Below are positions 13,928 to 51,340 of a DNA stretch of 64,000 bases, in pieces; within the stretch, counting starts at the first letter, position 1, and each line of letters starts with the position of its first letter. The position numbers were made by a program, and so were the translations under genes. Source of the stretch: Candidatus Chisholmbacteria bacterium RIFCSPHIGHO2_01_FULL_52_32 (lineage in GTDB: Bacteria > Patescibacteriota > Microgenomatia > UBA1400 > Chisholmbacteraceae); NCBI GenBank assembly GCA_001816585.1, contig MHCJ01000003.1, positions 522,681 through 586,680 on the forward strand, written 5' to 3'. Below the pieces are notes generated by a model. That model was not told the origin of the DNA, made no database searches, and saw only the letters and a list, made by a program, of their open reading frames with translations.

Positions 13928-13944
13928 GTGCAGGTGCGACCTGC
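13928..13944. repeat. REP element, degenerate (TGCAGGTGCGACCTGC)
   Basis: Core GCAGGTGCGACCTGC, still palindromic; Fic/AlkA-like intergenic gap. Confidence 0.6.
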
Positions 13945-38540: not shown

Positions 38541-38608
38541 GTACAGGTGCGACCTGTACGTGTGAATATACATGGCTATCTGACCTCCTGTACAGGTGCG
38601 ACCTGTAC
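38541..38608. repeat. direct REP doublet (38541-38559 and 38590-38608, both perfect)
   Basis: CCTCCGTACAGGTGCGACCTGTACGTGTG...CCTCCTGTACAGGTGCGACCTGTACATGGCG, in the convergent gap between the LTD gene and sortase 2. Confidence 0.85.
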
Positions 38609-38615
38609 ATGGCGG

Positions 38616-39173
38616 CTAGAGGAGGGCGGCAAAGGATGAGGCGGGTTTGGCGATGATGATCAGGCGTTGGGATTTTTGCGCTCCCGTGCAAGTAAGGAGC
38701 GTGAGGCGTTCGTCGGCTGTCTGTGCAATGACCCCGACCTCGGCCGGGCTGACAACGCGGATCGCGGAAACAAGATAACTTTTTGTTTTCCCTTCTCCCT
38801 CGATGAAGACCCGATCGCCAAGAAAAACTTTCTCAAGCGGTCCGAAGAAGTCTTCGGTATTGTGCGCATATATCACCGCGTTTCCCCATTCTCCAGGTTT
38901 GGCACTGGTTGCGAGGTAGGAGGCGGCATCCGGGAAGAACTCATAGCTTCCCGCTTGGCTTGCTGCTGACTTGAGTTGCAGATCAAGGTTCGTTTTTGGA
39001 ATGTATATCCTTTCCGGGGTGACAATGACCCTTTGGTGGTACTCGTGGGTTGGGGCTTGCACCAAGAGCGGGGCAAATTGGCTCTCGACCGGCTGAGGGT
39101 TTTGTCCAAACAGCGAGGCAAGGCTCATCCCGGCAAACGTGGCGATGGTGGCAACGAGCAATGGTATCTTCAT
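38616..39173 (-). CDS. sortase family transpeptidase (sortase 2)
   Basis: N-terminal TM helix; VIYAHNTEDFFGPL; TLxTC motif LTLLTC. Confidence 0.65.
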   Translation of the reverse strand: MKIPLLVATIATFAGMSLASLFGQNPQPVESQFAPLLVQAPTHEYHQRVIVTPERIYIPKTNLDLQLKSAASQAGSYEFFPDAASYLATSAKPGEWGNAVIYAHNTEDFFGPLEKVFLGDRVFIEGEGKTKSYLVSAIRVVSPAEVGVIAQTADERLTLLTCTGAQKSQRLIIIAKPASSFAALL

Positions 39174-39332
39174 GACTTCCTTTATAAAAAGGACTCCTAG
39201 TGGGAATCCTTGCGGCCTATACTATCCTTTCTCCCTTCGTTGTCAAGTCTGTACAGGTGCGACCTGTACGCGCAGTTTTTCCTGGCATTCATTCTCTCTG
39301 TACAGGTCGCACCTGTACGGTACAATGGGCAT

Positions 39333-39992
39333 ATGCCCGCAAAGTACACAGTCAAGATGTATGTTGAAAACGGTTATTATCATCTCCTCAACAGAGGGGT
39401 GGATAAACGATCTATTTTCTTCGATAAGAAAGATTCCGTCACCTTTCTGTCTCTTCTTAAGCGCTACCTTACTAATCCTGACCTTCTCCCACCTGAACTT
39501 CAGTTTCTCCGCCCGTCGCGCAGGTCGCACCTGTACGAGCAGATAACGCTCGTTGCCTACTGCCTTATGCCAAACCACTTTCACCTACTTGTAAGGCAGA
39601 AATCCAGGAACGCCATCACTGAATTCGCCCGTTGCCTCATGAACTCCTATGTCCGGCACTTTAATGACCGCCACGAGCGAGTAGGTCCTCTCTTCCAAGG
39701 AAGAATCAAGGGGATACTGGTGGATAATGATTCCTACCTCCTCCATTTGACACGATATATCCACCGCAATCCGGAAGAGTTTTGGGAACGTTCTCTTCGA
39801 GATTACCCGTATTCAAGCTATGCTGAGTATCTTGGTCTTCGAAGTACCTCTTGGATTCATCCGGAAGCGATTCTTGCCTATTTCAGATCACCCCTAAATA
39901 AAAGTCTGCATGATTATTTTTCCTACGAAAGCTTCGTCGAGGAATCAAAAGACGATTCGTCTGAGATCCTTAAGGAGATCACCCTCGAATAG
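39333..39992 (+). CDS. REP-associated tyrosine transposase (RAYT; IS200/IS605-like Y1 HuH transposase, transposase_17 type)
   Basis: YYHLLNRG...FFD (N-terminal motif), HuH motif AYCLMPNHFHLL, catalytic Tyr region YLLHLTRYIHRNP, DYPYSSY. Start at Met42 of the track ORF because the upstream in-frame residues are REP sequence. Flanked by REP doublets. Confidence 0.8.
   Translation: MPAKYTVKMYVENGYYHLLNRGVDKRSIFFDKKDSVTFLSLLKRYLTNPDLLPPELQFLRPSRRSHLYEQITLVAYCLMPNHFHLLVRQKSRNAITEFARCLMNSYVRHFNDRHERVGPLFQGRIKGILVDNDSYLLHLTRYIHRNPEEFWERSLRDYPYSSYAEYLGLRSTSWIHPEAILAYFRSPLNKSLHDYFSYESFVEESKDDSSEILKEITLE
39520..39536. repeat. REP-like copy inside the rayT coding sequence (GCAGGTCGCACCTGTAC, inverted orientation, 17 of 19 positions)
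   Basis: In frame it encodes RRSHLYE within a variable region of the RAYT, just upstream of the HuH motif. Confidence 0.6.
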
Positions 39993-40067
39993 CACCTCCG
40001 TACAGGTGCGACCTGTACGGTGTGTACGGGTGCGACCTGTACATGCGTGTTCTTTTGCTACCACTTG

Positions 40068-51323: not shown

Positions 51324-51340
51324 GTACAGGTGCGACCTGC
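51324..51340. repeat. REP element, 3'-truncated (GTACAGGTGCGACCTGC), directly followed by an 'AAGTTAAAAG' type-A repeat
   Basis: Lies just after the aminotransferase stop codon. Confidence 0.7.

Follow-up and report, generated by a model that had tools for sequence, protein, structure and literature searches.

In-frame copies of the cognate REP sequence inside the RAYT transposase gene of a Chisholmbacteria genome and of its Microgenomates relatives

A 64,000-nt stretch of Candidatus Chisholmbacteria bacterium RIFCSPHIGHO2_01_FULL_52_32 (contig MHCJ01000003.1; hereafter the window, within which all positions are counted) carries a population of repetitive extragenic palindromic (REP) sequences and one gene, rayT, for a REP-associated tyrosine transposase (RAYT). 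One of these REPs is not extragenic at all: it lies in frame inside rayT and is translated as part of the transposase. We have found that this is not peculiar to the window, since relatives of the gene carry REP copies at the same position, and often at a second one, and these internal copies change along with the REPs of their own genome. The explanation that we favor, and consider moderately probable, is that one half of an ancient in-frame REP doublet survives as the window site, which a RAYT acting in cis would have kept in step with the REPs of the genome by re-seeding or overwriting it.

The REP of the window (GTACAGGTGCGACCTGTAC) is 19 nt long, with an 8-bp stem and a GCG loop, and is found at 16 loci in the 64 kb when up to three mismatches are allowed, 8 of them perfect. 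Both of its ends read GTAC, and it lacks the terminal GTAG (or CGTC) tag of two described superfamilies (Di Nocera et al., 2013; PMC3733652). At 39518-39536 the + strand of rayT reads GCGCAGGTCGCACCTGTAC, which matches this consensus in reverse orientation at 17 of the 19 positions, and the codons from 39516 to 39539 (TCG CGC AGG TCG CAC CTG TAC GAG) give S62-RRSHLY-E69 in the frame of rayT, all of which confirms the inverted, in-frame copy reported in an earlier note on this DNA. The same note had held a chance match to be very unlikely, and this too was borne out: no REP match with three or fewer mismatches appeared in 100 dinucleotide-preserving shuffles of the window, as against 24 strand-matches at the 16 loci of the real sequence, and by our own calculation the chance estimate for a 17/19 match within the 660-nt gene is about 7e-6. 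Read in the orientation common to the REPs, the internal copy retains the 5' GTAC and the hairpin core (16 nt) intact, and its deviation is confined to the last three bases, where the two mismatches give ..ACCTGCGC in place of the ..ACCTGTAC of the consensus. The diverged extragenic copies at 13928 (..CTGCCC) and 51324 (..CTGCAA) differ at the same 3' place, and there is a 19-nt exact match between the internal site and extragenic DNA of the window, which, from a reading of the printed copies, is the copy at 51324. The internal site is thus a genuine member of the REP family of this genome, embedded in frame in rayT.

It is also the only intragenic REP in the window. The other 15 loci (15/15) lie between open reading frames (ORFs), the location usual for REPs and for REPINs (REP doublets that form hairpins). 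The copy at 39518 instead resembles the intragenic REPs and Rickettsia palindromic elements (RPEs): the whole element sits within the ORF, in frame and without a stop codon, in a stretch that the structural model shows as coil (residues 47-70). This coil ends shortly before the HUH motif, with the REP-encoded residues 14 residues upstream of it, in keeping with the variable linker in which the earlier note had placed the site, and this linker is indeed fast-evolving.

By operational criteria the host protein is a RAYT of a distant lineage and not the proteobacterial equivalog. Its product scores 31.5 bits against Pfam Y1_Tnp (PF01797; cutoff 23) and 38.1 bits against the NCBIfam equivalog REP_Tyr_transpos (NF047646), which is under the cutoff of 80; H82, H84 and Y142 are invariant across 39 homologues, Y142 being probably the catalytic tyrosine by analogy with the IS200/RAYT family; and the gene is bracketed by REPs on both sides (Table 1). 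The AlphaFold2 (AF2) model (predicted local distance difference test, pLDDT, 86.7) places a helix at residues 32-46, the coil at 47-70, a strand at 71-78 and HUH at 82-84, and its closest structure in the PDB is 4er8_A, the E. coli RAYT-REP hairpin complex (E=1.9e-7, TM 0.51/0.66), which ranks ahead of the IS200/ISDra2 transposases. Only one copy of rayT is present in the window. Its homologues at E<=1e-3 number over 4000, and come from Patescibacteria/Microgenomates including Levy-, Curtiss-, Woese- and Daviesbacteria.

The earlier note had suggested that a REP might have been accepted in this gene as an insertion of about 8 amino acids. The alignment does not bear this out: all 39 of 39 aligned homologues have a segment of equal length at linker 1, with the consensus 'QVRP-GWRSDLYDK', and none lacks it, so the window site is no private insertion and the event must be ancestral to the family. 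Within that consensus the DNA behind 'EVRP' (GAGGTCCGACC) and that behind 'RSDL' (AGGTCGGACCTC) are mutual reverse complements, which suggested a translated inverted REP pair, and the DNA of the relatives confirmed it. In locus L085, linker 1 is GAGGTCCGACCTCGTTGGAGGTCGGACCTC, translated as EVRPRWRSDL, a complete in-frame inverted REP doublet, and linker 2, just after RYIHLNP, is GAGGTCCGACCTGGGAGCAGGTCGGACCTG, translated as EVRPGSRSDL; L087 and L092 have the same arrangement. The centers of the in-gene doublets are 17 nt apart, which is the spacing of the extragenic doublets in the same contigs. The window copy stands at the right-half position, -46 relative to the motif MPNHxH, as do the copies in L085, L086, L089, L092 and L093. 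The left half is decayed in the window (about 7/19 by count) and linker 2 holds no copy; a search of the window rayT for a second relic, be it of the doublet's left half or in linker 2, gave at best 12/19, the level of shuffled sequence. What remains in the window is thus the right half of an old doublet that the family shares, one half-site of up to four.

For the wider family we gathered 80 loci from genomes, 80 from metagenomes and 11 from closer relatives; a scan of the metagenomes for very close relatives found none above 56% identity, and that set was used as an independent replication. RAYT 10-mers found again elsewhere in the locus form only two peaks, at -81..-45 and +207..+234 relative to MPNHxH. 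In 114 of 168 RAYT loci (Patescibacteria/Microgenomates) the coding sequence shares an exact match of at least 14 nt with the rest of the locus, and 98 of these 114 matches lie in the linkers (43 in linker 1 and 55 in linker 2), which together make up about one quarter of the length of the gene; about 40% of loci have no good internal copy in the DNA covered. Many of the internal copies are perfect palindromes of 21-24 nt that duplicate extragenic ones. The density of REP hairpins is 1.17/kb in RAYT coding sequence, close to the 1.22/kb of intergenic DNA, and at most 0.10/kb in other long ORFs. The last figure is an upper bound, as 'coding' here means stop-to-stop ORFs of at least 150 aa, which overcounts (in the window 4 of 13 REPs were scored as coding in this way, and none with start-defined ORFs). 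In relative orientation the copies of the two linkers vary, about 8 being opposite and 6 the same by our tally, a mixture that is better explained by opportunistic insertion than by a fixed functional architecture.

Several further features of the internal units deserve mention. Loci L113, L116, L119 and L065 have one perfect 21-nt palindrome (e.g., TGACAGGTATCATACCTGTCA or CTGCAGGGCCAGGCCCTGCAG) in both linkers and outside the gene as well. Many internal units measure 21 nt (7 codons) or 30 nt (10 codons), which hints that the length of the REP unit interacts with what the reading frame will tolerate. The proteins P0057 and P0107 have C-terminal extensions ending in '..NRSDLH/F' (alignment columns 301-315), where the ORF appears to read through into a downstream REP, giving REP-encoded 3' tails too; such tails fit the internal hits near +388..+459 in the survey.

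That the internal copies belong to the REP population is indicated by their co-variation with it. REPs differ widely between these genomes (AGGTCCGACCT, AGGGTCGGACCCT, AAAGGACGGACCTTT, CAAGGAGTATCCTTG, CAGGGCCAGGCCCTG, GGTATCATACC, and others), and the in-gene copies are of the type of their own genome even though the peptides that they encode are unrelated (KVRP, GSDP, YKGRTFV, EVPP..WHL). Using exact 10-mers that occur at least three times outside the gene, self matches were found in 14/77 loci at linker 1 and 17/77 at linker 2, as compared with 0-2/77 for control regions of the gene and about 2% for the DNA of other loci. With hairpin stems the locus's own stem was present in the gene in 15/37 loci, vs 3.6% for the stems of other loci (Fisher P=7e-12, not corrected for phylogeny), and in the independent metagenome set the corresponding figures were 29/48 and 1.5%. 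A 12-mer test allowing one mismatch proved too noisy in AT-rich loci, and exact 10-mers, stems and longest exact matches were used in its place; our first automatic builder of REP consensus sequences was excluded from the final counts, as it missed many loci because the asymmetric REP center splits k-mer counts.

The close clade of the window shows the same correspondence at the level of single codons. In the window gene and those of L081 (85% aa identity) and L084 (65%), the local REPs have a GCG loop and the internal site reads CGC AGG TCG CAC CTG TAC, with histidine; in L082, L089 and L093 the REP is of the type GGTC[C/G]GACC and the site reads ..TCG GAC.., with aspartate. The REP of L089 is ATGCAGGTCGGACCTGCAT and its internal site AGG TCG GAC CTG CAT; its outer stem GCAT goes with CTG CAT (His), and the GTAC of the window with CTG TAC (Tyr), so the alternation of Tyr and His follows the outer stem. 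A neighbor-joining tree computed without the linkers pairs L084 with L089 (weakly, and with no bootstrap), a pairing that implies at least two coordinated changes. Compared with L084, the window gene has identical codons at 6/6 positions of RRSHLY, vs a synonymous-codon identity of 0.39 over the rest of the gene, and the 18-nt core is the longest identical run shared by the two genes. L090 and L091 have partly decayed internal sites (12/17-18 by count). The possibility that H66/D reflects protein-DNA recognition co-evolving with the REP loop was considered and rejected as the main cause because the identity spans 16-19 nt, synonymous positions included.

As we picture it, an ancestor of the Microgenomates RAYT family would have acquired an inverted REP doublet in frame, in the coil that joins helix alpha-1 to the strand of the HUH motif; many members of the family carry a second doublet just after the helix of the catalytic tyrosine. 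A change in the REP of a genome, be it in the loop, the stem or the outer stem, goes with a change in the copy inside rayT. This could come about if RAYT acts preferentially on DNA beside its site of production, that is, on its own gene in cis, so that units of the current REP would again and again be seeded into rayT, or written over what stood there, at the two positions that tolerate extra residues, while selection would remove every other insertion in the gene and leave only in-frame copies in permissive coils. In the clade of the window, RRS[H/D]L[Y/H] is also under constraint as protein, and the stretch doubles as protein code and REP; rayT may be regulated as a consequence of all this, although the data do not require it. 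The comparisons thus show what the site is, that it is in frame, its ancestry in the family, the two hot spots and the co-variation with the local REP, whereas the copying and the preference for action in cis are inferred from them. Perfect long copies in many loci argue that copying is ongoing (by re-insertion or overwriting), as opposed to slow tracking by point mutation alone, and the more than tenfold excess of REPs over other genes calls for a reason that is specific to rayT.

A number of points weigh against this explanation. Linker length is constant in the clade of the window, and repeated insertion or excision is not directly visible there; judging from that clade, change in place, whether by selection for RAYT binding or by short-patch conversion, fits equally well. 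The 19 nt of a bare REP are not divisible by three, so that replacement in frame would need units of 21 or 30 nt. Occupancy is high (98/168 loci, with limited flanking DNA) and the positions are conserved across deep lineages, as would be expected of a selected element too. Cis preference is known for other transposases only; the mobilization of REPs by the window RAYT is putative, and the preference ascribed to it is borrowed from those other enzymes by analogy.

An exception is L083, in which RRSDLH is encoded by AGG AGA TCA GAT CTA CAT and the REP is lost at the DNA level. Compared with L082, four of the five codons within RRSDL differ, all of them synonymously, and the sole replacement in the segment is Y to H. 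Since L083 keeps the peptide without the REP DNA, the peptide has a value as protein and the REP can be dispensed with in at least one lineage, and a peptide retained in this way does not fit a purely permissive loop. The earlier note had proposed that orthologues with the same residues and no REP similarity in their DNA would mark the site as conserved coding sequence; L083 is just such an orthologue, whereas in most other relatives the DNA follows the local REP. The proteins of L082 and L083 are 84% identical and their genes share an 81-nt identical run, with linker 1 (columns 50-75) far more diverged than the rest; this divergence could have come about through a patch of recombination or through selection acting on the DNA to remove the REP.

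The most serious rival to re-seeding in cis is an autoregulatory operator, in which RAYT would bind hairpins that its own gene extrudes, in single-stranded DNA arising on transcription or replication or in the mRNA, and so limit its own expression, the site tracking its specificity. Such an operator would account equally well for two positions fixed across the deep family, for the high occupancy, and for co-variation with the local REP through in-place changes that leave the length of the linker in the clade unaltered. The 18-nt core conserved at synonymous sites is consistent with it, as is the template strand of the window, on which 5' GTAC and the hairpin core are intact and only the 3' end deviates; moreover, a promoter-like site that ends 7 nt before the ATG is overlapped by another REP, which makes REP control of rayT plausible. 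It is harder to reconcile with the roughly 40% of loci that have no good internal copy, with L083, which erased the REP yet kept the peptide, with a window gene that retains one half-site of up to four, with the variable relative orientation of the two linker copies, or with a local RNA structure no better than that of shuffles (z -0.5 to -1.1). On these sequence comparisons we take the operator seriously and still think it rather unlikely. The broader proposal that RAYT acts on its own gene, with in-frame recognition hairpins at two fixed places flanking the catalytic core, matched to the REPs of the genome and serving either as a self-limiting operator or as protected templates that would link enzyme and repeat heritably, we put forward tentatively, as a possibility slightly easier to credit than the operator taken alone; if it is true, one stretch of DNA would be both protein code and transposase substrate. 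The template half of that proposal, that REPs in the ORF are master copies protected by coding, from which changes in the gene spread outward to the extragenic REPs, predicts the observed co-variation equally well from the opposite direction, and many internal copies are indeed perfect 21-24-nt duplicates of extragenic ones. We nevertheless find it improbable: eight extragenic copies in the window are identical to one another, with two differences from the internal copy, an agreement against the internal copy that makes it an unlikely master in the window; perfect REPs already flank the gene and are more obvious sources; and many RAYTs with active-looking REP populations have no internal copy.

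A role in the mRNA, as a translation pause, an RNase site or a stabilizer that reuses the REP hairpin, merits equally little credence. A role as RNA elements is known for extragenic REPs, the perfect 21-24-nt palindromes or 30-nt doublets of the relatives would form stable mRNA hairpins, and the internal site of the window could in principle pair over 16 nt with the REP at 40000, past the stop codon. The local fold in the window, however, is not better than that of shuffled sequences, and the copies have neither a fixed orientation nor a fixed partner. The fold had been proposed as a check in the earlier note; the local hairpin at the internal site turned out to be only weak (z -0.5 to -1.1 again), and we dropped a strong mRNA-structure reading of the window site, its fold being no more stable than shuffled sequence. 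That a REP inserted recently into rayT of the window lineage is very improbable, despite the documented occurrence of in-frame REPs in other genes (PMC3733652), as the alignment, with no length difference from any homologue, refutes it, and as the same 18 nt are present in L081 (protein identity 85%) and L084 (65%), and doublets stand at the same spot in relatives of 53-60% identity. Hardly credible, finally, is ordinary conserved coding sequence that resembles a REP by coincidence or by way of an R-x-D-L-aromatic peptide. A loose motif, [RK]-x-[DN]-[LF]-[YFH], does recur at the site across the family, and L083 encodes RRSDLH with entirely different codons; but no 17/19 match is expected by chance, the internal sites follow differing local REPs through unrelated peptides (YKGRTFV, GSDP, KVRP, EVPP...), synonymous positions are conserved, and the self vs non-self tests contradict it.

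Table 1. Positions of rayT, its REP sequences and the two linkers in the window
Feature	Position	Strand	Remarks
Upstream inverted REP pair, REPIN-like	39251-39269; 39300-39318	+; -	both REPs perfect; folds to -44.4 kcal/mol as single strand
rayT coding sequence	39333-39992	+	ATG at 39333; 219 aa plus stop; Y1 HUH transposase
Linker 1, residues 47-70	39471-39542	+	coil from helix alpha-1 to HUH-leading strand; REP hot spot 1; from AF2 model and positional profiles
Left-REP position of relatives' doublet ('EVRP'; here LQFLRP)	39498-39517 (approximate)		no significant REP similarity left; about 7/19 in best register
Internal REP copy	39518-39536	-	reads GTACAGGTGCGACCTGCGC on - strand; 17/19 vs consensus; + strand encodes R63-R-S-H-L-Y68
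HUH motif H82 F83 H84	39576-39584	+	H82 and H84 invariant in alignment
Candidate catalytic tyrosine Y142, motif RYIHRNP	39756-39758	+	R141, Y142, H144 and N146 invariant
Linker 2, residues 148-157, EEFWERSLRD	39774-39803	+	REP hot spot 2 in relatives; short and REP-free here
Two downstream REPs	40000-40018; 40024-40042	+	first perfect, second with one mismatch; start 8 nt past rayT stop

The REPs around rayT have features of their own. The upstream inverted pair (taken as 39247-39323) forms one long hairpin with a z of -8.6, as in the inverted doublets of REPINs; the internal copy has no doublet partner within the gene. The spacing between REP starts in this pair is 49 nt, and it recurs at 38541/38590 and 60910/60959, the latter two pairs being in direct orientation. 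A sigma-70-like promoter match (TGTACA-16 nt-TACAAT, 9/12, a consensus match only) lies at 39299-39326 (+), with its -35 inside the REP at 39300-39318 and its -10 ending 7 nt before the ATG of rayT; this arrangement suggests that the rayT mRNA may be leaderless or nearly so, with a REP overlapping the candidate promoter. REPs followed by T-runs at 40020-40046 and 39250-39270 (+) score as intrinsic-terminator-like, and the REP at 40024 with its T-run could terminate rayT. The GCG loop is on the + strand in 14 of the 16 REP copies (12837 ... 61068), the exceptions being 39300 and the intragenic copy; the direction of replication or the orientation of genes might underlie this bias.

The genomic setting of the gene varies. 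In the window rayT adjoins a sortase-like ORF (38616-39173, with a TLLTC motif). The RAYT genes of L085, L086, L087 and L088 (at 4535, 1055, 3369 and 10001; 53-60% identity) stand in a conserved type IV pilus cluster, in the order prepilin peptidase A24, RAYT, N_methyl pilin, T2SSF and T2SSE, and the context in the window differs from this; the conserved neighborhood argues for long vertical inheritance in those four. Several GTDB records with Microgenomates-type RAYT and REPs (L003, L007, L008, L060 and others) are titled 'uncultured Gammaproteobacteria', 'Bathyarchaeia archaeon' or 'Nanoarchaeia archaeon', which are probably placeholder or wrong taxonomic labels of metagenome-assembled genomes.

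The long-term matching of RAYTs with their REPs or REPINs and the low activity of RAYTs are both questions on which in-frame cognate REPs bear: if a RAYT family carries its cognate REPs in frame, it has a built-in candidate for coupling of enzyme and repeat or for self-regulation. The replicated, co-varying pattern offers a direct experimental handle on this coupling, and the dozens of different REP sequences, each of them present in the RAYT gene that goes with it, form a natural set of protein-site pairs in which specificity and co-evolution can be studied. The pattern also means that, in the reduced genomes of the candidate phyla radiation (CPR), a conserved enzyme can include translated REPs and, for annotation, that peptides such as 'EVRPxxRSDL' and its variants in RAYT proteins are repeat-encoded.

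REPs and RPEs in frame inside ORFs have been described before (Di Nocera et al., 2013, BMC Genomics 14:522, PMC3733652), with uvrA, uvrB and recB among the hosts of intragenic REPs. The copies reported here are like those in that they are single or dimeric palindromes wholly within the ORF and in frame, adding about 7-30 residues, presumably in loops or linkers. They differ in that the host is the REP's own transposase, that the copies occupy two fixed positions family-wide and co-vary with the REP of the genome, and that the REPs of the window otherwise avoid genes completely (15/15 intergenic). In the portion of the supplementary material of that study reached by a term search, no transposase appeared as host, and RAYT occurred only in the RAYT/TIRYT alignment file. 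The author of the earlier note knew of no description of such an arrangement in RAYTs, and the RAYT/REPIN literature that we checked is in line with this: within the incomplete coverage of our term searches, neither REPs within a RAYT ORF nor autoregulation of a RAYT via them came up. A full-text search for REPs in the candidate phyla radiation, likewise of incomplete coverage, turned up a single paper, in which REPINs receive only a passing mention.

Another of the nearest known systems is the REPtron, a RAYT gene flanked by cognate REPs (Nunvar et al., 2010, PMC2817692; the term as used in PMC3733652). The window has the same make-up, with a Y1 HUH transposase gene bracketed by an abundant REP and a fold nearest to 4er8, and departs from it in the tag (GTAC and not GTAG), in a distant lineage below the NCBIfam RAYT cutoff and in its Patescibacteria hosts. 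REPINs are REP doublets forming hairpins (Bertels and Rainey, 2011, PMC3116915, PMC3337134), and here too the inverted pair seems to be the unit, both in the pair upstream of rayT in the window and in the tight doublets inside and outside the gene in relatives; unlike REPINs, the in-gene doublets are about 30 nt long and translated, and the window keeps one half. The IS200/IS605 elements (ISDra2, IS608; 2xm3, 2vjv) share the catalytic fold, and their TnpA recognizes hairpins next to its gene; however, those hairpins flank tnpA at the ends of a transposon that moves as a whole, whereas here the repeats are inside the ORF and the RAYT of relatives stays in a conserved chromosomal neighborhood. 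Intragenic REPs and REPtrons were thus both known; what seems new, against the literature checked, is a cognate REP in frame inside the ORF of its RAYT, family-wide and co-varying with the REPs of each genome.

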